From: Candidatus Uhrbacteria bacterium
GTDB taxonomy: Bacteria; Patescibacteriota; Patescibacteriia; UBA9934; GWF2-40-263
Direction: 5' to 3'
Length of the DNA stretch: 64,000 nucleotides
NCBI GenBank assembly: GCA_037131775.1
Contig: JBAXQK010000002.1
Coordinates: forward strand, 23,472-87,471
Shown here: positions 4,530 through 64,000 of the stretch, piece by piece
Numbering within the stretch: position 1 is the first letter of the stretch
Layout of the letters: each line of letters opens with the position of its first letter
Program-made: the position numbers and the translations under genes
The notes under the pieces: model-generated
The model's database searches: none
The model's input: the letters and a program-made list of their open reading frames with translations, nothing else
What the model was told of the DNA's origin: nothing

Positions 4530-6302
4530 ATGCGTCCCCTGCTCGAAGCCACCCAACTCCGGAAGCTCTACGGCCGCCAGCATGTGCTCGACGGGGTGTC
4601 TTTTGTCGTGTCGGAGGGCGCGCACATCGGGCTGGTCGGTCGCAACGGAGCCGGAAAGACGACGATGCTGAAGATCCTGGCGGGCGACGAGGAGGCGGAC
4701 TCCGGGACGGTGAAGCTGATGCCGTGGACGCGGCTCGGAGTTTTGCGACAGCATGAGATTCTGCCGGACGACGTGGCGACGCTCGCGTATCTCGCGTCGA
4801 CGAGCAGCCGGCCGGAATGGGACTGCTCGAAGCTTGCGGCGCGGTTCGGGATCAAGGGGAAGGAGCTTTCGCTTCCGCCGGCGTCGCTGTCGGGCGGATA
4901 CCAGATGCGCGTGAAGATCGTCGCGATGCTGTTGCAGAACCCGACACTTCTTTTGCTCGACGAACCGATGAACTATCTCGACCTTCCCACGCTCCTCCTG
5001 CTGGAGTCCTTTTTGCGCGACTATCCCGGCTCGTTCCTGATGACGTCGCACGACCGCGAGGCGATGCAGAACATCTGCACCGAGACGTGGGAGATCGCGA
5101 ACGGCGCGCTCGCCGAGTTCCCGGGCGACCTCGAGACGTACCTCGACTGGAAGGACGAGCAGGCCGAGTACGCGCGCCGCACCAACAAGCGCCTCCGCCG
5201 CGAGATGTCCGACGCCCAGGCGTTCGCCGACCGCTTTCGCGCCAAGGCGTCGCTCGCCTCGCGCGCCCAAAGCAAGCTCCGCCACATCGCCAAGCTTCGC
5301 AACCAGCTGAAGACGGTTGGATCGAACCTCCCCACCGCCGCATTCCGCATCCCCTGCCCGGCCGTCACCTCCGGTCCTGCGGTGCGCTGCGTCGACCTGT
5401 CGATCGGCTACGAGGGATACGCGCCCGTCGCGACCGGGATCAACGTCGAGATCCAGCGCGGGGCGAAGGTGGCGATCGTCGGCGAGAACGGTCGCGGGAA
5501 ATCTACGTTCCTAAAGACGCTCGGCGGGATCCTCGACCCGATCGCCGGCGAGGTCAAGTGGTGGCACCGCGCGAACATCGGGTATTTCTCCCAGCTGTCC
5601 GAGGACACGCTGTCGCCCGACGCGACCGTTCTTCAGGCACTCACCCAGGCCGCCGGCGACGCGTCCGGCGAGCGCATCCTGGCCGCGGCCGGCGCGTTCC
5701 TGTTCCGCAATGACGACCTCGAGAAGACCTGCCGGGTCCTCTCCGGCGGCGAGCGCGCCCGCGTTCGCCTGGCCCGGCTCGTCCTCCGCGAGCACAGCGT
5801 CCTCATCCTCGACGAGCCCACCAACCATCTCGACGCCGAAACCGTCGAAGTCCTCGCCCGCGCCCTCAAGGAATATCCCGGAACGGTCATCCTCGTCTCC
5901 CACGCCCGCACGTTCATGAACGCCATCATCGACACGATCTTCGAGGTTCGCGACGGGATGGTTCGGCATTACATCGGAACATACGAGGAGTATGTGAGCG
6001 ATTTGACGGACAAGGCGGAGGAGACGACGCGGGCGTCCGATAGCGCGACGACCACCCCTGACCCCTCCTGCCTATCAGGAGGGGAAACGTCGAGGAAAGA
6101 GCAGGCCGTCGCGAATCGCGAGAACAAGCGCGTGCAGCTTCGCATCGAGGACAAGATGAAAAAACTCGACCGTGAGAAGAGCGACATCCTGGCGTTCTTC
6201 TTTGAGAACCCGACCGATTATTCACCGGAAAAGAACCGCCGCCTGGCCGAGCTTGAGGAAGAGCTCGCGACCGCCGAGCGCGAGTGGCTGTCACACGTAT
6301 GA
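4530..6302 (+). CDS. ABC-F family ATPase (two tandem ABC domains, no TM; Uup/EttA-like)
   Basis: Two Walker A motifs (GRNGAGKTT, GENGRGKST) and two signatures (LSGGYQMRV, LSGGERARV) are present. An inter-domain linker and a C-terminal coiled-coil tail follow. An RBS GGAGAGAAGGGG lies upstream. Confidence 0.85.
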   Translation: MRPLLEATQLRKLYGRQHVLDGVSFVVSEGAHIGLVGRNGAGKTTMLKILAGDEEADSGTVKLMPWTRLGVLRQHEILPDDVATLAYLASTSSRPEWDCSKLAARFGIKGKELSLPPASLSGGYQMRVKIVAMLLQNPTLLLLDEPMNYLDLPTLLLLESFLRDYPGSFLMTSHDREAMQNICTETWEIANGALAEFPGDLETYLDWKDEQAEYARRTNKRLRREMSDAQAFADRFRAKASLASRAQSKLRHIAKLRNQLKTVGSNLPTAAFRIPCPAVTSGPAVRCVDLSIGYEGYAPVATGINVEIQRGAKVAIVGENGRGKSTFLKTLGGILDPIAGEVKWWHRANIGYFSQLSEDTLSPDATVLQALTQAAGDASGERILAAAGAFLFRNDDLEKTCRVLSGGERARVRLARLVLREHSVLILDEPTNHLDAETVEVLARALKEYPGTVILVSHARTFMNAIIDTIFEVRDGMVRHYIGTYEEYVSDLTDKAEETTRASDSATTTPDPSCLSGGETSRKEQAVANRENKRVQLRIEDKMKKLDREKSDILAFFFENPTDYSPEKNRRLAELEEELATAEREWLSHV

Positions 6303-16650: not shown

Positions 16651-16688
16651 GGATACGAACCTACGAATTAGCTACGAAACTACGAACC
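16651..16688. repeat. family-B half-copy
   Basis: GGATACGAACCTACGAATTAGCTACGAAACTACGAACC was seen between the TSP3 paralogs B and C. It overlaps the stop of paralog C. Confidence 0.6.
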
Positions 16689-47089: not shown

Positions 47090-47660
47090 CGCCACACCGC
47101 GTCACTTTCTTTCAGCCGTGAAAGAAAGTAACCAAAGAAACCGTCCGCCCGGTCTCCATGGCGGGCCGGGACGGAAAAGGCGGCCTCGGCTGCGGAACTC
47201 GCTAGTCCGCCAAGTAAAACAAAAAGAGCGGAACTTCGCTCAGACAATCCTCGCCCGTCCTGATGGACCCGGCCGCCTTTTCCGTCCCGTCTCCATCCGT
47301 CATTCCGACAGGGCGGGTTATCCGGGCGGTGTTGCGATGGTTATTTTTGGCTGAGGCCGTAATAACTTTCAACGTTTCCCCTCCTCATAGGGAGGAGGGG
47401 TCAGGGGTGGCCGTCGCGCCATAAACAAAAAACTTCCATCCGGTCGCCGCCCTGCCGGAGCGACCCAGCCAGGACGTGAAAAATTGGCGGGTGCATCAGC
47501 ACGGGCGAGGATTGTCTGAGCGTGCGAGCCCGTAGGCGAGAAGCGAGTTCCGCAGCCGAGCCAATTTTTCGCGTTCTGGCGTAGGAGCGGATGGCCGGGC
47601 GGAAGGCTCTCTTTGCCTACTTTCTCTGTCCGCCCCACAGAGAAAGTAGGTCGGGTGCAG
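47090..47660. other. approximately 570-bp noncoding region dense in nested inverted repeats and hairpins (candidate structured RNA, or a MITE-like repeat pile-up)
   Basis: Terminal hairpins are CACTTTCTTTCA-GCCG-TGAAAGAAAGT (47107-47135) and CCTACTTTCTCTGT-CCGCCC-CACAGAGAAAGTAGG (47617-47651). Internal pairs include GGACGGAAAAGGCGGCC with GGCCGCCTTTTCCGTCC, CTCGGCTGCGGAACTCGC with GCGAGTTCCGCAGCCGAG, and CAGACAATCCTCGCCCGT with ACGGGCGAGGATTGTCTG. It also contains one family-C hairpin. Confidence 0.5.
47373..47418 (+). repeat. family-C GC-hairpin repeat (copy 1)
   Basis: GTTTCCCCTCCTCATAGGGAGGAGGGGTCAGGGGTGGCCGTCGCG, with a 9-bp perfect stem CCCCTCCTC/GAGGAGGGG. Confidence 0.75.
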
Positions 47661-53005: not shown

Positions 53006-53020
53006 AGAATTTTTCTTTAC

Positions 53021-53067
53021 ACGTTTCCCCTCCTCATAGGGAGGAGGGGTCAGGGGTGGTCGTCGCG
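53021..53067 (+). repeat. family-C GC-hairpin repeat (copy 2), in the aspS 5' leader
   Basis: Nearly identical to copy 1; TGGTCGTCGCG variant. Confidence 0.75.
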
Positions 53068-54109: not shown

Positions 54110-55408
54110 TTACGGCGTAATCCGGTTAATCAATCTCGGAAACGGAATCGTCTCCCGAATATGCTGCAAGCCGCAGACCCACGCGACGATACGCTCCAAC
54201 CCGTAGCCGAACCCGGAATGCGGGACGGATCCAAACCGTCGCAGATCGAGATACCACTGGTACGGCTCGGTCGGGACGTTGTGGTCCTTCATGCGCTGGA
54301 GGAGCTGATCGTAATCGTCCTCGCGCTGGGAGCCGCCGATGATCTCGCCGTATCCTTCCGGGGCAAGCATGTCGGCGTTGAGGACGCGGGTAGGATCCAT
54401 CGGGTCGCGCTTCATATAGAACGCCTTCACGACGGCCGGGTATTTCTCGACGAAGATCGGACGGTCGTACAGTTTCGTCAGCACCGTCTCGTCGTCTCCG
54501 CCAAGGTCGTCCATGTCGCCGATGTCGCTCCCAAGCTCGCGGAGCTTCGCGACCGCCTCGGCGTGTGTCATGCGGACGAACGGGGCCTGGACCTTTTCGA
54601 GGGCCGGGACGTCGCGCTCGAGGATGGCGAGCTCGGCGCGGTTCTTTTCGAGAACGTCCTTCACGATGCGGCAGACGAGCCCTTCCTGCACGGCGAGGTT
54701 TCCCTCGTGATCGACGAAAGCGGCCTCGGCGTCCATCATCCAGAACTCGGTGAGGTGGCGGCGGGTCTTGCTCTTCTCGGCGCGGAACACCGGGCCGAAG
54801 TCGAACGCGCGGCCGAGGCTCATGATGCCGGCCTCTAGGTACAGCTGGCCCGACTGCGACAGGTACGCGTTGCCCATGTCGAAGTACTCGATCGAGAACA
54901 GCTCGGTCGTTCCCTCGCACGCGGTCGGCGTGAGGATCGGCGTGTCAAATTTCACGTAGCCGTTCTCGTTGAAGTACGCGAACGTCGCGTTGATAATCGT
55001 GTTGCGCACGCGCTGGATCGCCCACTGCGATTCGGAGCGGAGCCAGAGGCTGCGTTGGTCGAGGAGGAAGTCCGGGCCGTGTTCCTTCTTGCCGATCGGA
55101 AAGTCCTCCGTCGGGATCTGGATCGCGGCGAACGAGACTCCGGTCAGCTCGAACCCGGACGCCGATCGTGCCTCGGCTTTCACCGTTCCGCGAACGATCA
55201 CCGACGATTCGATGCGAACCGTGTCGAGTACGTTCCACTGGTCCTCCGGCAACTCGGCCTTCGAATAGACGACCTGGACGCGCCCGGTTCCATCGCGCAG
55301 CTGCAAAAAGAAAATTTTCCCGCTCGACCGGAAATTATACGCCCATCCCTTCAACTCAACTTCTTGGCCAACGTAAGCGCCGATTTGGGATATGGTTGTG
55401 GTGATCAT
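54110..55408 (-). CDS. asnS: asparaginyl-tRNA synthetase
   Basis: The C-terminal region GGSQREDDYDQL...DLRRFGSVPHSGFGYGLERIVAWVCGLQHIRETIPFPR matches AsnRS. The start was reassigned to MITTTISQIG. Confidence 0.9.
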   Translation of the reverse strand: MITTTISQIGAYVGQEVELKGWAYNFRSSGKIFFLQLRDGTGRVQVVYSKAELPEDQWNVLDTVRIESSVIVRGTVKAEARSASGFELTGVSFAAIQIPTEDFPIGKKEHGPDFLLDQRSLWLRSESQWAIQRVRNTIINATFAYFNENGYVKFDTPILTPTACEGTTELFSIEYFDMGNAYLSQSGQLYLEAGIMSLGRAFDFGPVFRAEKSKTRRHLTEFWMMDAEAAFVDHEGNLAVQEGLVCRIVKDVLEKNRAELAILERDVPALEKVQAPFVRMTHAEAVAKLRELGSDIGDMDDLGGDDETVLTKLYDRPIFVEKYPAVVKAFYMKRDPMDPTRVLNADMLAPEGYGEIIGGSQREDDYDQLLQRMKDHNVPTEPYQWYLDLRRFGSVPHSGFGYGLERIVAWVCGLQHIRETIPFPRLINRITP

Positions 55409-55423
55409 AACGGAGAGATTGTA

Positions 55424-55454
55424 CCAAAAAACGACCGTATGACGCAACGGTCGT
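55424..55454 (-). terminator. intrinsic terminator after recO (minus strand)
   Basis: On the minus strand, hairpin ACGACCGTTGCGTCATACGGTCGT is followed by TTTTTTGGT. Confidence 0.6.
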
Positions 55455-55460
55455 CGTCTG

Positions 55461-56234
55461 TCAAAGGGAACAAGCGGCCCGAAGCGAGTTTGCGGGAATC
55501 ACGGGGAAATGCGAGATCATAAGGCCCTCGACCGCCTCGTGAAACTCGTTGAGCGCGACGACGGGGAGCAGTGGTCGAAGATGCGACTCGAACGGTTCGG
55601 AGAGGCCGAAGCGAAGGAGCTTGAGGGTGTCGTCGGAGATGGCGCGGGCGGCGAACCACTGGCGGTTGTCGCGCGTGACGCACGGGCTGCACACGACGCC
55701 GCCCTTGAGCGCGTGCCATCGATACTGTCCCGCGACGATTGTCGTCTTGCAATCGAGGCAGCGCGACACCTCGGGACGATACCCGATCGCCGCGAGCAGT
55801 TTGAGTGCGAACCCGGCCAGGAGAAATCCGGCGCGGTCGGAGCTGACGGACGGCGCCGCGTCGATGGCGGCGAGCCAGGCAAGGACGATCGCGTATAGCG
55901 TCGGGTCGGCCTCCTCCTGGCGCGTGGCGATGTCGACGAGGTACAGAGCGTTGCGGACGAGGAGAAGGCGCGAGACGTCGGCGTATAGTCCCGGGAACGC
56001 GACGCGCCTGTCCGTCCCCGCGACGGTATTGAACTGACGTCCGTTCACGACGTGAAAGTCGATCACCGCCGGCATCTCGAGGTGCGGGGTAAGCTTCGCG
56101 AGCATCTTGTGTCCTCCGCGGGCGAGGAGTTCAATCTTCCCATGCTCACGCGTCAAAACAGAATACCACCGATCCGCTTCCCCGCGGTCGCGACGGGACA
56201 AAACGATTCCGGTGGTATTATACAACGTCGCCAT
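55461..56234 (-). CDS. recO: DNA repair protein RecO
   Basis: N-terminal OB fold and a C-terminal zinc motif CLDC...CSPC are present. Confidence 0.85.
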   Translation of the reverse strand: MATLYNTTGIVLSRRDRGEADRWYSVLTREHGKIELLARGGHKMLAKLTPHLEMPAVIDFHVVNGRQFNTVAGTDRRVAFPGLYADVSRLLLVRNALYLVDIATRQEEADPTLYAIVLAWLAAIDAAPSVSSDRAGFLLAGFALKLLAAIGYRPEVSRCLDCKTTIVAGQYRWHALKGGVVCSPCVTRDNRQWFAARAISDDTLKLLRFGLSEPFESHLRPLLPVVALNEFHEAVEGLMISHFPVIPANSLRAACSL

Positions 56235-56246
56235 TTTCTTTTTTCT

Positions 56247-56292
56247 CGTTCCCCCTCCTCATAGGGAGGAGGGGTCAGGGGTGGTCGTCGCG
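56247..56292 (+). repeat. family-C GC-hairpin repeat (copy 3), between ruvX stop and recO start
   Basis: CCCCCTCCTCATAGGGAGGAGGGGTCAGGGGTGGTCGTCGCG. Confidence 0.75.
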
Positions 56293-56299
56293 ACGGTCT

Positions 56300-56716
56300 T
56301 TACTCCATCCCGCTCGTCGTCGGATCAATCCGATCCATGTACGACTGCAAAATCAACATCGCGGCAAGCGCGTCCTCCTCGGCCTGCGCCCCTTCCTCGC
56401 GCTGCAACCGAATGCTCTCGCCCGTCGTATACGACTCATCCTCCTCGAGGACGGGAATCGGCGTCGCAGCCTCGAGCGATTTGATGAAGGCGCGAGCCTT
56501 GTCGAGCTGCTTGGAGCTATGATGAACGCCCGTCGAAAGCGGGACACCGACGATGATCGCGTCGATGTCCTCGGACTTCGCCCGCTTCGCGAACACGCGG
56601 ATCGTCTCGTCCCCGACGTTCGGAACGACGTCGAGCGGGACGGCAATGTTCGCCTCGGTGTCACCGAACGCAAGGCCGATCTTTTTGTCGCCGTAGTCAA
56701 TGCCTAAAAGTCTCAT
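56300..56716 (-). CDS. ruvX: Holliday-junction resolvase-like nuclease RuvX/YqgF
   Basis: Starts MRLLGIDYGDKKIGLAFGD (RNase H-like). The start was reassigned out of a longer antisense-extended ORF. Confidence 0.85.
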   Translation of the reverse strand: MRLLGIDYGDKKIGLAFGDTEANIAVPLDVVPNVGDETIRVFAKRAKSEDIDAIIVGVPLSTGVHHSSKQLDKARAFIKSLEAATPIPVLEEDESYTTGESIRLQREEGAQAEEDALAAMLILQSYMDRIDPTTSGME

Positions 56717-57489
56717 ACCGGCAAGGGCGTTAAAATCTCGATCCCCTCCTTCGTCACCGCGATCGTCACCTCGAAGTGCGCGCTGATCTTTCGGTCCTTC
56801 ATTACCACGGTCCACCCGTCCTCCGCGGTTTCCACCTCCCACGTTCCGATTCCAAGCATCGGCTCGATGGCGAGGCACATGCCTTCCACGACCGAAACCT
56901 TCGGATAGCGCTTGTCGACGTAATTCGGAACGTGCGGCCCCTCGTGCACCTTGTGGCCGACGCCGTGGCCGACGAGCGCCTGGACGATGCCGTAGCCGTG
57001 CGGTTCGACGATGGCGACGACTGCGTGCGACACGTCGCTGATCAACCCGCCGACGTGGACGGCATTCGCCCCGGCCAGGCACGCCTCGCGCGTCACGGCC
57101 ATCAGCTTGGTCGCCTCTTCTGAGACGGTTCCAACGGGGACGGTTACCGCCATGTCCGTGCACAACCCATGCAGCCACAGCCCGATGTCTAGCCCCACGA
57201 TGTCCCCTTCCTTCAGCGCGATCGGCCGATCCCCGCGCCCATGCACGACCTCCTCGTTCACGGAGATGCACATCGTCGTCGGAAACGGCTCGTCATCCGG
57301 ATGCGAGCGATACCCCATAAACGAAGGCTCGCCCCCGCCAGCACGAATCACGTCCGTCGCGATGACGTCGAGCTCGGGCAGAGTGATCCCGGGACGAACC
57401 GCGTCGACAGCCGCCTTGAGCGCGCGCGACAAGAGTTGTCCTCCTTCGCGCATCGCGTCGATTTCTTTTTGGGTTTTGGTCAGAGCCAC
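56713..57489 (-). CDS. map: methionine aminopeptidase type I
   Basis: A pita-bread fold with metal ligands in conserved context is present. Confidence 0.9.
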   Translation of the reverse strand: MALTKTQKEIDAMREGGQLLSRALKAAVDAVRPGITLPELDVIATDVIRAGGGEPSFMGYRSHPDDEPFPTTMCISVNEEVVHGRGDRPIALKEGDIVGLDIGLWLHGLCTDMAVTVPVGTVSEEATKLMAVTREACLAGANAVHVGGLISDVSHAVVAIVEPHGYGIVQALVGHGVGHKVHEGPHVPNYVDKRYPKVSVVEGMCLAIEPMLGIGTWEVETAEDGWTVVMKDRKISAHFEVTIAVTKEGIEILTPLPV

Positions 57490-57495
57490 AGATTT

Positions 57496-58128
57496 CTAAT
57501 TTCCCATTTCTAATTTATCAACGATCCTCTCCTGGACCTCCTCGACCGTGCCGACCCCGTCGACGCGGACCAGCACGCCCTTCTCCTCGAACCTCCCGAG
57601 CATCGGCGTGGTGTCGTTGTCGTAAATGTCGAGCCGGCGGCCGATGGCGGCCTCGGTGTCGTCGTCGCGCCGAACGAACGCTCCGCCGCACGCGCACGCG
57701 TCGCCTTCCTTTGCCCCGTCCTTCGTCGACGCGACCGCGCCGCAGCTCGAGCAAGTCAAGCGTCCGCCGAGACGATTCAACGATTCCTCGCGCGGAACCT
57801 CGATCACGATCACGTGCGTCGGCGCGTCGAACGTAAACGCCGCATACTGCTTCAAGTTGCGCGGATACCCGTCGAGGACATATCCGTTGATCGCGTCAGG
57901 ACGGGACAGACGCGCCTGGAGAACCTCCGCGGCGACTTCGTCGGACACCAGGTTCCCGGCCTTCAGAATCCCGTCGACCTTTAGCCCGACATCCGATCCC
58001 GCCGCGACTTCGTCACGCAGCAGCTGCCCCATCGCAAGTGCCGGAACGTTCAGCTTCTTCGACAAGATCTGCGCCTGCGTCCCTTTTCCGCTGCCCTGCG
58101 GGCCGAGAAGGATGATTTTATAGGTCAT
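57496..58128 (-). CDS. adk: adenylate kinase (with zinc-binding lid, CSSC...CACG)
   Basis: P-loop GPQGSGKGTQ and a Cys4 lid are present. Confidence 0.9.
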   Translation of the reverse strand: MTYKIILLGPQGSGKGTQAQILSKKLNVPALAMGQLLRDEVAAGSDVGLKVDGILKAGNLVSDEVAAEVLQARLSRPDAINGYVLDGYPRNLKQYAAFTFDAPTHVIVIEVPREESLNRLGGRLTCSSCGAVASTKDGAKEGDACACGGAFVRRDDDTEAAIGRRLDIYDNDTTPMLGRFEEKGVLVRVDGVGTVEEVQERIVDKLEMGN

Positions 58129-58133
58129 ATGTT

Positions 58134-58688
58134 CTAAGTTTTTTGGGTGGTGGAATTTTTGGGTGGATTGAATCTGCCCAGCACAATGTAGTAAAAAATA
58201 CGTGCAAAAATCCTAAACAACAATATCCAGATAAGTGGAAGACCGAGAAATGCCAAACTAATATTCAACCAACGTGGTTGTGTAATGATTGATAAGTTGT
58301 AAAGTCTGTGCTTATCAAAACATTCTGAATCTGTTAACTCACTTGATAAGAGACAGTCTGTCATTAAACGCCTGGATTCTGTTTCATCTCTGAAAGAAAA
58401 GTTACAATGCGTAAGAATTGATGTATCGTCTACATGAAGTTGCCCATTATACAGCCTAGAGAATATCTCATCAGAAGAGATTTTAGCATCTACGAGTGTG
58501 GATGATTTTCCAGAACCGCAACGAATGGTTGAATCATCGTAATTAATGGCAAGTCCGTTTTGATGAATAATAAATAAATAATAGCTTGCCGCAATCACAA
58601 ACAATAACACACAAACACTAACAACCTTCAGCAGGCGAAACCACACGCGTGTGTTCAGTTCTTGAATGGAGTGAATTTTATTACTCAT
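58134..58688 (-). CDS. hypothetical membrane protein (2 TM, Cys-containing extracytoplasmic loop) in the AT-rich island
   Basis: About 33% GC versus about 60% surroundings. It is translationally coupled to the upstream ORF by an ATGA overlap. Confidence 0.5.
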   Translation of the reverse strand: MSNKIHSIQELNTRVWFRLLKVVSVCVLLFVIAASYYLFIIHQNGLAINYDDSTIRCGSGKSSTLVDAKISSDEIFSRLYNGQLHVDDTSILTHCNFSFRDETESRRLMTDCLLSSELTDSECFDKHRLYNLSIITQPRWLNISLAFLGLPLIWILLFRIFARIFYYIVLGRFNPPKNSTTQKT

Positions 58689-59026
58689 AGAGATGTCGCT
58701 TTATTTGCGGCAAATTCATCCACTCCCGTTTTAATTTCGATTAGTTCTTGATATCGAATGGGCGACGGTATGTAAAAATCAAGAATGGAACTATTCGTCA
58801 GTATTAACTCTATCACCTCACGATCGGTCAGATTTTCAAAAAGAATTACCCGTAGCGCAACTTTAATATCAGCCTTTTGCCAAGGAAGCTCGTCTTCAAA
58901 AAAATATAGTCCAGGACGCCTATTCTCAAGATACAAAGCAAAATCACCTACAACTTCCCACGCGGTTTTAGAATCTAGATTTTTTTTAAGATCGTCTGCG
59001 AGAGATTTTTGAAAACTCATACGCAA
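58685..59026 (-). CDS. hypothetical protein (113 aa) in the AT-rich island
   Basis: AT-rich codon usage. Tightly packed in the operon. Confidence 0.5.
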   Translation of the reverse strand: MRMSFQKSLADDLKKNLDSKTAWEVVGDFALYLENRRPGLYFFEDELPWQKADIKVALRVILFENLTDREVIELILTNSSILDFYIPSPIRYQELIEIKTGVDEFAANKATSL

Positions 59027-59029
59027 TAA

Positions 59030-59320
59030 TCACCACAGCTGGATACAAATACCCCTTGCTGCGGAGATACAATAAACACTTCTAAAGGAGTGGCGAATTT
59101 TAATTGTTTTATGCATCATCTCGTGAATGTTTGTATTTGTCCATGGGAAAATTCCAAAGTTGATCAGTAATTGTAAGGTTTTTTGAGTATCTATTGAATA
59201 CTCTTCTGCCTTATGTCCCAAAGCCTCTCTTATCCTTATGGCATCATTTTGTATTCTCAACGCTGGAAGATCGAAAGACTCTCCACGTTCATATTTTTTT
59301 AATTGGGCGAGTTGAAACAT
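59030..59320 (-). CDS. hypothetical protein (96 aa) in the AT-rich island
   Basis: AT-rich. It overlaps the upstream ORF by 22 nt in another frame, so the two may be one frameshifted gene. Confidence 0.4.
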   Translation of the reverse strand: MFQLAQLKKYERGESFDLPALRIQNDAIRIREALGHKAEEYSIDTQKTLQLLINFGIFPWTNTNIHEMMHKTIKIRHSFRSVYCISAARGICIQLW

Positions 59321-59556
59321 ATTCCGGAATTCAGGCTCCTCAAATGGTGTATTCCGAACGGGAACAGCATAACAATTTGGACCATTAGATTATTTTCAAT
59401 TTCAGAATTCTTAATTTTAAAGAGAAGATCACACTCTGGTTCTAAATATTCTTGATCTTTAACTTCAAAAGAATACTTTGTGGAATTAATTTTATTGTAT
59501 GTAGAAACAAACAAATTGCCAATTTCCCTTAATTCATCACGGCTTGGTTCTGACAT
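59299..59556 (-). CDS. hypothetical protein (85 aa) in the AT-rich island
   Basis: AT-rich. First gene of the island. Confidence 0.35.
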   Translation of the reverse strand: MSEPSRDELREIGNLFVSTYNKINSTKYSFEVKDQEYLEPECDLLFKIKNSEIENNLMVQIVMLFPFGIHHLRSLNSGICFNSPN

Positions 59557-59595
59557 ATTTCCCGCTCATTATACCAGAAGACGAGGACTCTCGCC

Positions 59596-59657
59596 CCCGT
59601 CTTTGTAGCAATCCGTAGTATTTGTAGTTTAGCGGCCAATTCGTAGTTTCGTATCCC
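59596..59657. repeat. family-B half-copy at the secY-proximal boundary of the AT-rich island
   Basis: TTTGTAGCAATCCGTAGTATTTGTAGTTTAGCGGCCAATTCGTAGTTTCGTATCC. Confidence 0.6.
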
Positions 59658-59662
59658 TGTCT

Positions 59663-60937
59663 CTACATGTCGTACTCGTGCATGCTCATCTGCGCCTCCA
59701 TCTGCTTCATCGTCTCAATGACCACGTTCACCACGATCAGGACGGACGTTCCGCCGATCACGAGGGAGGCGTTGCCGGTCACCTGCTGGGCGACGAGCGG
59801 GAGGATGGCGATCATGGAGAGGAAGACGGCTCCCACGAGCAGGACGCGGTTGGTGACCCAGGCGATGTACTCGGCCGTAGGCTTGCCCGGACGGATGCCC
59901 GGGATGAAGCCGCTCTGCTTCTGGAGGTTTTCCGCCACGCGGTCCGGGTGGAAAATGACCGACGTATAGAAGTACGTGAAAGCGAACACCAGGCCGAAGT
60001 AGATGATGCCGTACACCAGCTGGTTCTGGAACACTTGGAGCACCCACTGCGCGGCGGTGCGCAGGGCCTCGGTTCGGGCGTTCAGGAAGAACTGGGCGAT
60101 GACGCGCGGGAAAAGGATAATGCTGATCGCGAAGATGATCGGGATCACGCCGGCGATGTTGAGCTTGATGGGGAGGTTGGACGGCACGGCTCCGGAGAGA
60201 CGCGTTCCGCGGGTCTGTCGGGCGTACTGCACCGGGATGTTGCGCTGCGCCTCGTGCATGACAACGACGGCGCCGAGCGTCACCACGACGAGGATGGCGA
60301 AAATGATCGCGGTGATCATCTGGGATCCGTCATAGAGCGCGAGCGACTGGCCGAAGTAGTTCGGAAGGCCGGCGATGATTCCGGCGAAAATCAGGATGGA
60401 CGTTCCATTGCCGAGGTTCTTCTCCGAGATGAGCTCTCCCATCCACATGAGGAAGATCGTTCCGGCCGTAAGCGTTCCCATTACGAGGACCGTGGTGAAC
60501 AGGTCGGCGGTTCCGGCCGTGAACAGCTTGGCGCCGGACTGCTGGTTGAACAGGAGCACGAGGCCGTATCCCTGCAGGAGGGCGAGCGGAACCGTGAGCA
60601 CGCGCGACCACTGGTTGATCCGCTGGCGTCCCTGCTCTTCCTTCTGCATCTCCTCAAGCTTCGGGATGATCATCCCGAGCAGCTGGAAGATAATGGAAGA
60701 CGTGATGAACGGCGCGAGGCCGAGCGCCACGATGGAGAAGTGCTGGAGCGTGCCGCCCGAGAAGATGTTCAGGAGGCCGAAAAACTGGTTGCCTTGAAAG
60801 TAATTCACGAGCGCGCTTGGGTCCACGCCCGGAACCGGGATGTGGGCCGCGACGCGGAAAATGACGAGCATCGCGAAGATGAACAACAGGCTGTTACGAA
60901 CCTCTTTGGTCTTCCAAACGCGCGTGAATGAAAACAT
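59663..60937 (-). CDS. secY: preprotein translocase subunit SecY
   Basis: 10-TM SecY with conserved plug and TM2/TM7 regions. Confidence 0.95.
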   Translation of the reverse strand: MFSFTRVWKTKEVRNSLLFIFAMLVIFRVAAHIPVPGVDPSALVNYFQGNQFFGLLNIFSGGTLQHFSIVALGLAPFITSSIIFQLLGMIIPKLEEMQKEEQGRQRINQWSRVLTVPLALLQGYGLVLLFNQQSGAKLFTAGTADLFTTVLVMGTLTAGTIFLMWMGELISEKNLGNGTSILIFAGIIAGLPNYFGQSLALYDGSQMITAIIFAILVVVTLGAVVVMHEAQRNIPVQYARQTRGTRLSGAVPSNLPIKLNIAGVIPIIFAISIILFPRVIAQFFLNARTEALRTAAQWVLQVFQNQLVYGIIYFGLVFAFTYFYTSVIFHPDRVAENLQKQSGFIPGIRPGKPTAEYIAWVTNRVLLVGAVFLSMIAILPLVAQQVTGNASLVIGGTSVLIVVNVVIETMKQMEAQMSMHEYDM

Positions 60938-60944
60938 ATTTGGT

Positions 60945-61379
60945 TTACAGGATGGAACCGCCGGCCTTCTCGATCTTTTCCTTCGCGGTCGCGGAGACCA
61001 TGCACCCCTCGACGACCAGCTTGATCGCGATAGCGCCGTCGCCGAGCAGCTTCACCTTGCCCTTGGCCGGAACGAGTCCCTTCTCAAGCAGCATGGCCGG
61101 GTTGACCTTGGCGCCGTCGGGGAAGTTCTTGGCGAGCATCGCCACGTTGACGACCATCGGCTTCTCGTGAATGCTCTTGAACCCGCGGTTCTTCTTGGTG
61201 GAAAGCATGATGTGGCGCAATCCCTTGAGCTGGAGGCCGGAGCGACCACCAGAGCGGGCGCGCTGACCCTTCACGCCGCGGCCCGAATAGGAACCGCCTT
61301 TGGAAAGGCCGCGACCGACGCGCTTGGCCGCCTTGCGCGCGCCTTTGGCCGGACGAATTGTGTTGAGGGTAAACGCCAT
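60945..61379 (-). CDS. rplO: 50S ribosomal protein L15
   Basis: Starts MAFTLNTIRPAKGARKAAKRVGRG. The start was reassigned. Confidence 0.9.
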   Translation of the reverse strand: MAFTLNTIRPAKGARKAAKRVGRGLSKGGSYSGRGVKGQRARSGGRSGLQLKGLRHIMLSTKKNRGFKSIHEKPMVVNVAMLAKNFPDGAKVNPAMLLEKGLVPAKGKVKLLGDGAIAIKLVVEGCMVSATAKEKIEKAGGSIL

Positions 61380-61384
61380 AGGGG

Positions 61385-61942
61385 TTATGCGGCCTTGGCT
61401 TCCGCCACGACCGGTTTCTTCGGAAGGCGAAGCTGCTTGATCGCTTCGAACGTGGCCTTCGCGATGTTGATTTTGTTGGAAGAGTTCAGAATCTTGGAGG
61501 AGGCGTTCGGAACGCCGGCGAACTCGAGCACCATGCGGACCGCTCCGCCGCACTTGAGACCGGTACCGCTCGGGGCCGGCTTCAGGAGAACCATGGCCGA
61601 ACCGAACTTCACCTGGATCGGATGCGGGATCGTCGCGTGGGTCATCGGAACGCGGATCACGTTCTTCTTGGCCTGGCGGTAGGCCTTGTCGATGGCAATC
61701 TGCACGTCGACACCCTTGGAAACGCCAAGTCCGACGCGGCCCTTCTTGTCACCGATGACGAGGGTGCAGCGAAACGACATGCGCTTTCCTCCGGCCGTGA
61801 CGCGCGTCACGCGGGAAAGGTCGAGGATCTTCTGCTCGAACTCCTTCGGCTCGGCATGACGGCCACCGCCTCCGGCTCGCGGCGGTCGGGCGCCTGGCGC
61901 GGCTCCGGTCCGGCCGCTCGGTTTTTTCTTTTGTTCTTCCAT
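61385..61942 (-). CDS. rpsE: 30S ribosomal protein S5 (with Gly/Arg-rich N-terminal extension)
   Basis: The S5 dsRBD and C-terminal domains are present. It is directly adjacent to rplO with no L30 gene between. Confidence 0.9.
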   Translation of the reverse strand: MEEQKKKPSGRTGAAPGARPPRAGGGGRHAEPKEFEQKILDLSRVTRVTAGGKRMSFRCTLVIGDKKGRVGLGVSKGVDVQIAIDKAYRQAKKNVIRVPMTHATIPHPIQVKFGSAMVLLKPAPSGTGLKCGGAVRMVLEFAGVPNASSKILNSSNKINIAKATFEAIKQLRLPKKPVVAEAKAA

Positions 61943-61948
61943 AGGAGG

Positions 61949-62305
61949 TTAAAAGATGAGTCCGCCCTCGCGCGCACCGTCGGCAAGCGCCGCGACGCGT
62001 CCGGTGTAGCGGTTCGAACCGCGGTCAAACACGACCAGGTCGATTCCGGCGGCCTTCGCCTTCTCGGCAAGCTTCGCGCCGACCGCCTTGGCGATCTCCA
62101 CGGGCTTGGCCTTCTCGGCCACGTCCTTGTCGGACGCGCTCGCGAGGGTGACGCCCGCGTTGTCGTCGATGAGCTGGCAGCGGATGTGCTTCAGGCTGCG
62201 ATGGACGCTCAGACGCGGGCACTCCTTCGTGCCGTGCATGCGCGCGCGCACGCGTTTGGCACGACGCACCGCTCGTTCCTTTTTTGCTTTGATCGTGTTT
62301 GGCAT
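61949..62305 (-). CDS. rplR: 50S ribosomal protein L18
   Basis: N-terminal [16 protein letters not shown]. Confidence 0.9.
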
Positions 62306-62310
62306 ATGTT

Positions 62311-62868
62311 CTATGCGCTCGCCTTCGCGGCCTTACCGGCCTTGCGGCGAATCACTTCGTCGATGTACTTGATACCCTTGCCCTTGTACGGTTCCGGCGG
62401 GCGAAGCTTACGGATGCGGGCGGCGGTGAGTCCGACCTCCTCGCGGTCGTTACCGGTCAGGGTCAGGACGTTCTTCTCGGCAACGGCGCTGACGCCTTCC
62501 GGAAGCTCGAAGTTTACGTCGTGGGAGAACCCGAGGTTCATTACGACTTTCTTCCCCTGGACGCTCACGCGGAACCCGACGCCGTTGATCTCGAGCACCT
62601 TCTTGAACCCCTCGGTCACGCCCGTCACCATATTGGCGATGTTGGCGCGCGCGGTTCCCCACTGGGCGCGGTCTGCCACGAGCTCCGGGTCGGCCACCGT
62701 GACGAGAATGCCCTTTCCGCCCTCGATGTCGGAGACGGTGGCGGTCACGTGCGCGTTGAGCGAGCGGACCAGGGTCCCTTTCGGTCCGGTGACGGTCACC
62801 GTTTGCCCGTCGATGACGACGTCAACCTTCGCGGGAATAAGGATCGGTTTTTTGCCAATGCGGGACAT
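62311..62868 (-). CDS. rplF: 50S ribosomal protein L6
   Basis: N-terminal [12 protein letters not shown]. Confidence 0.9.
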
Positions 62869-62871
62869 ATG

Positions 62872-63267
62872 TTAAAACACTTCGCAAATAACCTCTCCGC
62901 CGAGTTTGCGGGAGCGGGCCTCCTTGTTGGTCATCAGGCCGTTGGACGTGGAGATGATGGCGATGCCCATGTCGGACATGACGCGCGGCATCTCGTCGCA
63001 CTTGGCGTAGACGCGGTGGCCCGGCGTGCTCACGCGGTGCACCTCCGTGATGGAGGCGGCGCCGTCGCGGTACGTCAAACCGACGCGCAGCGCCGGGTGC
63101 GAGCCCTCGGGCGTTCGCTTTTCGATGCCGTTCACGAACCCTTCCTTCTCGAGGATCTTGGCAATCGCGAACTTGACGTTCGAGTATGGCAAGACAACCT
63201 CGCGCTTCTTTACTTTGAAGGCGTTGCGCAAACGGGTCAGCATGTCTGAGATCGGGTCGGTCATCAT
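62872..63267 (-). CDS. rpsH: 30S ribosomal protein S8
   Basis: N-terminal MMTDPISDMLTRLRNA. Confidence 0.9.
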   Translation of the reverse strand: MMTDPISDMLTRLRNAFKVKKREVVLPYSNVKFAIAKILEKEGFVNGIEKRTPEGSHPALRVGLTYRDGAASITEVHRVSTPGHRVYAKCDEMPRVMSDMGIAIISTSNGLMTNKEARSRKLGGEVICEVF

Positions 63268-63268
63268 A

Positions 63269-63454
63269 TTACCAGCTTGCTTTTACGATTCCGGGGATCT
63301 CTCCTCGGTTAGCCAATTCACGGAAACAGATGCGGCAAAGTTCAAACGCGCGCATGAACCCGTGCCGGCGTCCACACTTCCAGCAGCGATTCACCTTGCG
63401 GGTCGAGTACTTTGGTTTCCGCTTCGATTTTGCGATCTGATTCTCCGTTGCCAT
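63269..63454 (-). CDS. rpsZ: 30S ribosomal protein S14 type Z (zinc-binding, 61 aa)
   Basis: Zinc ribbon [20 protein letters not shown]. Confidence 0.9.
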
Positions 63455-63459
63455 ATGGC

Positions 63460-64000
63460 TTACGTGCGAGCTTTACCTTTTTTATCAACGTCCTGGACGG
63501 CGAACGGAAAGCCGAGATGCGTGAGAAGGGACTTTCCCTCGGCGGCCTTCGTGGTGCTCATCGAAATGGTCACCTGCAGGCCGTGGATCACCTCGATCTC
63601 ATCGGTGTGGATTTCCGGGAACGCGGTGTGCTCCGGGAATCCGAGGGTGTAGCTGCCCATCGCGTCGAATCCGGTCGGCGGAATGCCGCGGAAGTCGCGG
63701 ATGCGCGGAATGGAAACCTTTACGAGCTTCTCGAGGAAGTCCCACATGCGCTTTCCGCGCATGGTCACCTTCATTCCCACCACCATGCCCTCGCGAATCT
63801 TGAAGGCCGCGATGGACTTGCTCGCCTTGGTCTTGACCGGGAGCTGTCCGGAGATGCGCTTGAACGTGTTCTCGGCGGTCTCGAGGAACTTGGCGTCCTT
63901 GAGGCCCTTTCCAAGGCCGATGTTCAACGTCACCTTCAGCACCTTCGGTACCTGGTTGGGGTTCTTGTACCCGAACTCGGACATGAGCGCTGGGACGACG
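63460..64000 (-). CDS. rplE: 50S ribosomal protein L5 (5' end extends beyond window)
   Basis: Reading upstream of the track ATG gives ...[18 protein letters not shown], which matches the L5 consensus. The true start therefore lies beyond coordinate 64000. Confidence 0.85.

Follow-up and report, generated by a model that had tools for sequence, protein, structure and literature searches.

We have analyzed a 64-kb stretch of DNA (64,000 nucleotides, hereafter the window) from a Candidatus Uhrbacteria bacterium, in which an AT-rich island of four small open reading frames (ORFs), O1 to O4, separates secY from adk. The genes in this part of the window are on the minus strand, in the order rpsE, rplO, secY, (island), adk, map, ruvX, recO. 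The island comprises 1428 bp with a guanine plus cytosine content (GC) of 36.3% (58129..59556); its limits follow from composition and from a break in the alignment to the related locus L005, and the exact ends are ambiguous inside a 5-bp ATATG. The upstream flank is secY (59663..60937), which encodes 424 amino acids (aa) and matches Pfam SecY with E=1.7e-99; the protein is 100% identical to its counterpart in L004 and 90% identical to that in L005. Downstream, adk (57496..58128; 210 aa; Pfam ADK, E=2.2e-32) is intact and is now the fifth cistron. Other contigs and loci are designated here by L numbers, and proteins by P numbers.

Composition and site of the insertion

The GC of the island (36.3%) is far below that of the remainder of the window (61.7%). 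In 200-nt windows the value drops from about 0.62 to 0.32-0.39 within the secY-adk interval, while every kilobase outside the island has a GC of at least 0.565; the island is the single low-GC block of its kind in the 64 kb. Its tetranucleotide composition lies at an L1 distance of 0.93 from the remaining window, compared with a maximum of 0.40 for other 1.4-kb segments. GC at third codon positions (GC3) ranges from 0.29 to 0.35 among the island ORFs, against values of 0.80-0.88 for secY, adk and map. The deviant composition and codon usage expected of a horizontally acquired islet are thus evident in GC, GC3 and tetranucleotides alike, and the island is foreign DNA that has not yet drifted toward the composition of its host. 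An earlier note on this DNA, made from the sequence alone, had described a sharply bounded AT-rich block between secY and adk, and the GC and tetranucleotide profiles agree with it. Its figure of about 33% GC was correct as to the low value and somewhat under the measured one; its span, 58129-59580, covers the island, but 59557-59580 is native DNA, as judged by the ~93% identity of the spacer to that of L005. At 300-nt resolution two further GC dips are seen, at 12.6-13.0 kb near ftsZ/ftsA and at 30.8-31.3 kb near rpsU/hisS. Both are plain intergenic DNA and were rejected as further islands.

A SecY scan with one genome per species gave 80 related loci, and adk was seen downstream of secY in about 66 of them. 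The secY-adk gap is shorter than 450 nt in 56 of these ~66. In the six closest relatives the site is empty, with gaps of 70 (L004), 113 (L005), 92 (L006), 108 (L065), 94 (L007) and 109 nt (L008). On either side of the island L005 aligns collinearly with the window (~90% and 87.5% nucleotide identity), and the alignment breaks at 59555/58133. Like this alignment, the spacers of L004 and L006 continue straight into the adk ATG. The empty junction of L005 reads GAGCGGGAAATAT-ATG-ACGTATAAA, running into adk (also given as GGGAAATAT-ATG-ACG). Its spacer ends with TGGTATAATGAGCGGGAAATAT-ATG, the start of adk, and the window matches it up to the ATG of O1. The left junction in the window is GAGCGGGAAAT-ATG-TCAGAA, the start of O1; the right junction, 1428 bp on, is AGAACAT-ATG-ACCTATAAA, the start of adk. 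In the island-free allele GGGAAATAT would be joined directly to ATGACCTAT. The pentamer ATATG occurs at both ends of the island and as a single copy at the empty site of L005: the ATG of the left copy (59554..59558) is the former adk start codon, now the start of O1, and that of the right copy (58126..58130) is the present adk start codon. These junction sequences show that the island was inserted exactly at the adk start codon and that O1 uses the old ATG.

The island is therefore best described as a recent insertion in one lineage of high-GC Candidatus Uhrbacteria. That its genes were instead present here ancestrally and disappeared from the relatives might be entertained on the ground that the secY-adk junction varies across the wider clade. 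However, the inserts found there in other genomes consist of unrelated genes, the six closest relatives have short spacers which, in L004, L005 and L006, meet the adk ATG directly, and a GC3 of ~0.3 against ~0.85 for the genome is incompatible with long residence. We regard ancestry as effectively refuted. The comparison of the junction with related genomes, which the earlier note had asked for, thus yields empty sites nearby and unrelated insertions elsewhere.

The island is 100% identical in two other assemblies, an 11.7-kb MEGAHIT contig from ENA (L001) and a 5-kb Logan contig (L002). The window, L001 and L002 mutually differ by single-nucleotide polymorphisms (SNPs), all within 60563-61032 (secY, rplO), and because the SNP positions differ among them the three are separate consensus sequences. 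The polymorphisms are clustered in these 470 nt, with none elsewhere in 5-11.6 kb; the cluster could represent strain microdiversity or a small recombination tract. The two island junctions share only 5 nt, far below any assembler k-mer, and a de Bruijn graph would not be expected to make a join at both of them. These observations bear on whether the island is an assembly chimera or a contamination, by which low-GC DNA of another organism was joined to an Uhrbacteria contig. The switch in composition is indeed abrupt, and the data are all metagenomic. Against this, three assemblies that come from different pipelines and carry different flanking SNPs agree at both junctions, the sequence common to those junctions is so short, and the insert supplies adk with a perfect ATG while O1 takes the old one. 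A chimera is extremely unlikely. The foreign insert that had been proposed at the secY-adk junction is accordingly upheld by empty relatives, by extreme composition and by three assemblies.

The island ORFs and the O3 family

The four ORFs fill the island almost without interruption. O1 (59299..59556) encodes an acidic, soluble protein of 85 aa without a significant homologue. O2 (59030..59320; 96 aa, basic and soluble) shares 22 nt with O1, relative to which it is shifted to the -1 frame. O3 (58685..59020) encodes 111 aa from its ATG and belongs to an unannotated family of five-helix proteins; an alternative TTG start two codons upstream would give 113 aa, and the O2-O3 gap is thus 3 or 9 nt. 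O4 (58134..58688; 184 aa) has two transmembrane helices around a loop of ~100 aa with four Cys residues. Its ATG overlaps the TGA of O3 (ATGA), and its TAG stop is followed after 5 nt by the ATG of adk. Among 2000 shuffles of the island none had a same-strand open reading frame as extensive, so the ORF-filled block is real and far beyond chance. Four small, tightly coupled ORFs had been reported in the earlier note, and the overlaps, the short gaps and the shuffles bear this out. It had also suggested a possible frameshift between O1 and O2. The layout does resemble one, but no X XXY YYZ slippery heptamer can be read in the 22-nt overlap, and programmed -1 frameshifting is for that reason unlikely. 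O1 and O2 may be a pair of small genes that overlap, or the remnant of a frameshifted gene. Use of genetic code 25 (UGA = Gly), which would fuse O2 to O3, was rejected, as the O3 homologues begin at O3's own ATG.

Searches of Pfam, NCBIfam, PADLOC and PHROGs with all four ORFs gave no significant match. The best library matches were weak: phrog_28160, of unknown function, for O1 (E=3e-4) and PADLOC REase_II, over 42 residues, for O2 (E=0.0017). A protein homologue search with O1 and O2 concatenated, the O2 frame being extended upstream, returned no match; since it misses even O1 and O2 themselves, neither has been called as a gene by any source. Among 5.8 billion protein clusters O4 retrieved only itself. 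Hydropathy places two hydrophobic segments in O4 with the Cys residues in the intervening loop, and a single-sequence AlphaFold2 model is confident only for two long helices; both agree with the earlier description of one ORF having two transmembrane segments and a Cys-containing loop. PDB sequence searches with O4, O1+O2 and the O3 profile were without a match, as were scans of viral contigs with O4, O1+O2 and the O3 alignment. In metagenome scans a 27-mer from the left flank gave 0 matches and the O3 alignment no confirmed relative; the island had no match in Rfam at E<=1. We also considered O1 as a paralogue of O3 and rejected it (hhalign probability <1%; 51/2000 shuffles score as high). 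An O1-O2 fusion at codon 69 gave a marginal result against the O3-family profile, with 22/2000 shuffles scoring as high compared with 51/2000 for O1 alone, and O2 did not match this profile.

The product of O3 is the one island protein with relatives. An exhaustive HMMER (phmmer) search of 1.84 billion representatives at a cut-off of E<=1e-3 identified 21 proteins, O3 and 20 homologues, with E values from 2.9e-21 to the cut-off and 46% identity for the best homologue. The statement in the earlier note that none of the four proteins was recognisable therefore stands with respect to the curated libraries, and is superseded for O3 by these ~20 distant homologues. Family members are ~90-155 aa long, mostly 100-130 aa, and are encoded on Patescibacteria-like contigs. 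They share the motifs AWE..DF, (F/Y)xF..xLPWxK..IL and FIPxPxxY, and O3 has every invariant and near-invariant column, as expected of a true member. Its predicted fold is confident and consists of five helices. When the 21 members were compared with Pfam and other libraries no O3 domain was matched, each hit being confined to a single member. One member, P0009, has a response-regulator receiver domain added at its C terminus, and another, P0004, a Cys-rich, zinc-ribbon-like tail.

The neighbourhoods of the O3-like genes were compared in the window and ten further independent contexts (11 in total). A gene for a small transmembrane (TM) protein adjoins the O3-like gene in 8 of the 11. It lies upstream on the same strand, overlapping or within 32 nt, in L096 (103 aa, 2 TM), L098 (180 aa, 3 TM), L094 (146 aa, 3 TM), L092 (93 aa, 2 TM) and L087, and upstream at 175 nt in L086; it lies downstream, on the same strand, in L089 (81 aa, 2 TM) and in the window, where it is O4. 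Under a strict definition of a partner (<=200 aa, >=2 TM windows, same strand, <=40 nt) one was found in 6/11 contexts, and 3/88 genes qualified in a crude control over the same loci, which gives a rough binomial p of ~6e-7. The membrane partners of L096 and L089 are homologous (E=8.6e-9) even though they are on opposite sides of the O3-like gene, and the remaining ones are unrelated in sequence. No neighbour of an O3 homologue is related to O1, O2 or O4.

Several of these contexts have the character of mobile DNA. A large serine recombinase is encoded within ~0.6 kb of the O3-like gene in three independent contexts (L092/L093, L094 and L096/L097); a primase zinc-ribbon gene is present in L098 and a Y1-transposase-like gene in L090. 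The O3-like gene is poorer in GC than its surroundings in L089 (0.25 against 0.40), L094 (0.30 against 0.40) and L090 (0.27 against 0.37). From the partners, the recombinases and the low GC we infer that the O3 family circulates in a mobile gene pool and works together with a membrane partner. The ATGA overlap in the window, the 8/11 contexts and the three that lie near serine recombinases are what a small, coupled, co-oriented gene pair recurring on mobile elements should display. O3 is a bona fide member of a rare, unannotated family tied to mobile elements and small membrane proteins.

Two of these loci deserve description in their own right. L096:928-9323, together with L097, forms a putative integrative element that is represented by at least 14 contigs and carries a split large serine recombinase, a 2-TM ORF and the O3-like gene, as well as an HTH_17 protein, a MmeI-like restriction-modification enzyme, a PD-(D/E)XK nuclease and a PIF1-like helicase. 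L089:5990-6740 is a second AT-rich islet, ~750 nt long (GC 0.21-0.29 against 0.40), located between genes for a class II aminoacyl-tRNA synthetase and a peptidase M16; it contains an O3-family gene followed by the 81-aa 2-TM ORF homologous to the membrane partner in L096.

The principal rival to a functional cassette is that the island is a hitch-hiker without function, a decaying fragment of a mobile element which is tolerated since the expression of adk is preserved. The state of O1 and O2 (apparently frameshifted, without homologues and passed over by gene finders) would fit such decay, as would an orphan O4, the lack of mobility genes in the insert and its single occurrence. On the other hand, the operon strand is open over the full 1428 nt, to an extent not equalled in the 2000 shuffles, O3 retains the conserved residues of its family and folds confidently, and the ATGA coupling of O3 to O4 has been kept. 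Intact ORFs are weak evidence for selection because the insertion is so recent. On balance this explanation is unlikely, although it is the strongest of the alternatives, and we favour an island whose O3-O4 pair would have a function.

The putative adk promoter and the secY-adk junction

The native secY-adk spacer, at 59557..59662, is 106 nt long and contains short repeats spaced by 19 nt (D12, D15). It shares ~93% identity with the spacer of the island-free L005, and what the earlier note took for a family-B repeat at the edge of the island is part of this native DNA. The spacer of L004 is without the repeat part. A spacer 20-mer, GATACGAAACTACGAATTGG, has a related second copy at 16652-16671. 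On the 3' side of secY the spacer forms a terminator-like hairpin (59578..59603) with an 11-bp stem and a GAGA loop. Its minimum free energy is -20.8 kcal/mol (z=-4.65; 0/200 shuffles fold as well), and the stem is kept in L004, L005, L007 and L008 with G-C/G-U swaps. Directly after the hairpin, 11 nt before the ATG of O1, is the extended -10 box TGGTATAAT (59568..59576), which is the putative promoter of adk itself.

A TGnTATA(A/C)T-like box is found 8-13 nt before the adk ATG in ~12 relatives; the adk upstream regions that share it include those of L004-L008, L024, L030, L037, L042, L050 and L065. A TANNNT box ~10-12 nt upstream of the start codon has been described as a signature of leaderless genes (PMC3160421). 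Given a conserved box at this distance from the ATG, right after a terminator-like hairpin, adk in this clade is probably a leaderless or near-leaderless first gene of its own transcription unit and not a member of the spc operon. The notion of foreign DNA captured in a ribosomal operon consequently needs to be divided: the DNA is foreign, but the secY hairpin and the box of adk both precede the island, so that it probably does not lie in that operon.

In the window the island is located downstream of TGGTATAAT, between the box and adk. Because of this position O1 would have inherited the promoter and the initiation site of adk, with adk relegated to fifth cistron. Terminator prediction gave no strong candidate within the island. 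The start of adk 5 nt after the last island stop was correctly noted before. The missing Shine-Dalgarno sequence, which had been noted with it, is not special, since secY, rpsE and map likewise have none. A start without such a sequence being normal for this host, re-initiation at adk after the O4 stop is a reasonable proposal.

The secY-adk junction is variable beyond the closest relatives. In ~15 of ~75 informative loci of Uhrbacteria and other Patescibacteria, either secY and adk are separated by additional, unrelated genes or adk is not found within 5 kb. Inserts of 0.4-4.6 kb are present in L024, L030, L036, L037, L042, L050, L052-L056, L070 and L073. Their genes include a methyltransferase and a PNP-family phosphorylase (L024), a Zeta toxin (L070), a GIY-YIG protein (L036), a Na/Ca exchanger (L073, L052), an ATP-binding cassette (ABC) transporter (L055, L052) and a conserved unknown protein of ~380 aa that is shared by L037 and L042. 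With unrelated inserts in several loci, the junction is a site of recurrent gene gain. In L024, L030, L037, L042 and L050 the insert is upstream of the box, and adk there keeps its promoter; an insert between the adk promoter box and the ATG is seen only in the window and possibly in L036. The latter locus has a 100-aa GIY-YIG gene (L036:6261-6700) between a TGTTATACT box and the adk ATG, which may be a second, independent insertion between the adk promoter and its start codon. Similar stretches of ~18 nt, GTTATACTCGTCAAGTATT and GTTGTACTACTGAGTATG, flank this gene.

The alignment of the window (55200-64000) to L004 is a mosaic: identity is 96% (93-99%) upstream of the secY stop and 84-90% in adk, map and recO. 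Such a mosaic indicates that recombination has shuffled the region among lineages, and it suggests a recombination breakpoint at or near the secY-adk junction. This shift at the junction (96% upstream, 84-87% downstream), the GIY-YIG gene at the same place in L036, the position between two highly conserved genes and the weak REase_II match of O2 are the arguments for another explanation, that the island is a free-standing homing-endonuclease cassette in which O1/O2 represent a frameshifted nuclease and which spread by cleavage of the empty secY-adk junction, repair then copying in the cassette together with its flanks. The other evidence is difficult to reconcile with it. Pfam, NCBIfam and PDB show no nuclease domain in O1, O2 or their fusion, and neither ORF has homologues; the native spacer is intact up to the ATG, with no co-conversion visible in the left flank; and O3-O4 would go unexplained. 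We consider a homing cassette very unlikely and retain a promoter-capturing insertion of foreign genes as the preferred account.

Origin of the island and possible role of O3-O4

The island has few of the usual marks of mobility. No tRNA lies near it (the nearest is >11 kb away), and a repeat search with seed 7 found no terminal inverted repeat or longer direct repeat joining its ends; the sole flanking repeat is the 5-bp ATATG. A tblastn search of the 64-kb window with three large serine recombinases found no homologue, and the island had no blastn match in phage or plasmid collections. The features that define a transposon (terminal inverted repeats, a transposase, multiple copies) are lacking, as is the gene content of a serine-recombinase element or prophage, the 1428 bp holding only O1-O4. 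The ATATG flanks fit a target-site duplication or microhomology equally well.

The island could accordingly be a non-autonomous transposable element or cassette, moved in trans, that duplicated a 5-bp ATATG target. This pentamer is indeed present once in L005 and on both sides of the insert, and relatives of O3 adjoin serine recombinases or a Y1-transposase-like gene. Yet the insert has neither terminal inverted repeats nor sub-terminal structure, it occurs as one copy in the window and nowhere else in very large databases, and the 64 kb contain no homologue of a recombinase. An identity of 5 bp is, moreover, also left by microhomology-mediated illegitimate recombination. A non-autonomous element seems to us quite improbable as compared with the reading that follows.

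Taking the evidence together, we read the locus as a recent foreign cassette at the adk ATG which has captured the adk promoter and which carries a mobile O3-O4 module; we give this joint reading a probability of about 0.6. The cassette would derive from the mobile gene pool of low-GC Patescibacteria, the probable donor. Recombination, either microhomology-mediated or trans-acting, would have left the ATATG repeat at the adk ATG, and O1 would thereby have taken over the promoter TGGTATAAT and the initiation site. A single mRNA would carry the four ORFs together with adk, and adk would be translated through re-initiation 5 nt past the O4 stop. O3-O4 would be one instance of a recurrent module, composed of a five-helix cytosolic protein and a variable small multi-pass membrane protein.

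Several points weigh against this reading. Protein and DNA collections yielded neither a donor nor another copy of the island, and the insert is without a recombinase, terminal inverted repeats or a tRNA. O1 and O2 are uncalled as genes and have no homologues. O4 has no homology to the other membrane partners; it is also larger and bears a big external loop. Comparison of the O3 fold matched nothing informative, and no toxin, antitoxin or defence domain was found in O1-O4 or the O3 family (Pfam, NCBIfam, PADLOC, PHROGs). The function of the adk promoter, its leaderless start and the co-transcription with the island are deduced from the geometry of the sequence, and the whole data set consists of metagenome assemblies.

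The island may be compared with several known kinds of insert. It resembles genomic islets and prophage morons in being a compact, AT-rich group of accessory ORFs between conserved genes that is absent from sister genomes, and relatives of one of its genes, O3, adjoin integrases on mobile elements. It differs from them in having no integrase, tRNA target, att-like repeat, promoter or terminator of its own, and in its location directly at an essential gene's start codon, behind the promoter of that gene. As in integron cassettes, promoter-less ORFs lie behind a resident promoter and ahead of a resident gene in the same orientation. However, the island end CTTAGAAC has no attC-like palindrome and misfits the RYYYAAC/GTTRRRY core, there is no attI/IntI context, and four ORFs are contained in one unit. 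The free-standing seg/mob homing genes of the T4 type are likewise AT-rich inserts between conserved genes with a mosaic of identity in the flanks, but the island has no recognisable nuclease. An islet of orphan and near-orphan genes is an event of a familiar type at an unusual site, and the lead that comes from the island is an uncharacterised, apparently mobile two-gene module, O3-O4, for which a role in defence or as a toxin is a candidate.

Such a role, a toxin/immunity or defence cassette, had been put forward in the earlier note; domain evidence does not support it, and it survives as an extrapolation from the O3-O4 neighbourhoods. By analogy it is plausible that O3-O4 is a toxin/immunity or exclusion pair; more speculatively, O4 might be a membrane-acting toxin or exclusion protein and O3 its soluble neutraliser or sensor. 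PanA provides a precedent, being a conserved antitoxin domain that is combined with diverse toxins, including membrane-depolarising ones (PMC8832971). Like the PanA-PanT pairs (PMC8832971), O3-O4 and their relatives are small coupled genes on mobile elements, the O3 family supplies a conserved soluble partner to diverse small transmembrane proteins, and the gene order can be swapped. The differences are that none of the 21 members, O3 included, matches DUF4065/PanA or another antitoxin, that O3 is without a DNA-binding domain, and that O4, with its Cys-containing external loop, far exceeds typical membrane toxins in size. O3-O4 can also be likened to RexA/RexB of phage lambda, a soluble and a polytopic membrane protein encoded near the integration/immunity end of an integrated element. 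The Rex proteins have no known similarity in sequence or fold to O3-O4, which are much smaller.

Members of the candidate phyla radiation (CPR)/Patescibacteria have tiny genomes, and their gene gain and mobile-element cargo are little understood. The present locus offers a nucleotide-exact view of a very recent gene gain, before and after the event. Foreign DNA has come to lie between an essential gene and its putative promoter with neither destroyed, which would illustrate how a promoter-less cassette can be expressed at once. The O3 family, with a confident, unmatched helical fold and with links to membrane proteins and serine recombinases, is a candidate toxin/immunity or exclusion module. 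A wider proposal, which we put forward as speculative and rather unlikely, is that an O3-family protein and a variable small membrane protein constitute an undescribed module of the Patescibacteria mobilome, and that the island, the L089 islet and the L036 insert are recombinase-less, promoter-capturing micro-cassettes. If this were so, the module would act as a toxin and its neutraliser or as an abortive-infection/exclusion pair, and the micro-cassettes would enter leaderless housekeeping genes at the point where promoter and start codon meet, and would depend on the promoters of those genes.

Two minor observations concern the remainder of the window. A BLAST comparison of L001 with the window revealed intergenic repeats of ~54-60 nt that are 92-96% identical to each other, at 6037-6090, 47366-47419, 53009-53067 and 56233-56292. 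In L004, ~665 nt between map and ruvX (L004:7848-8513) are absent from the corresponding position of the window (~56717).

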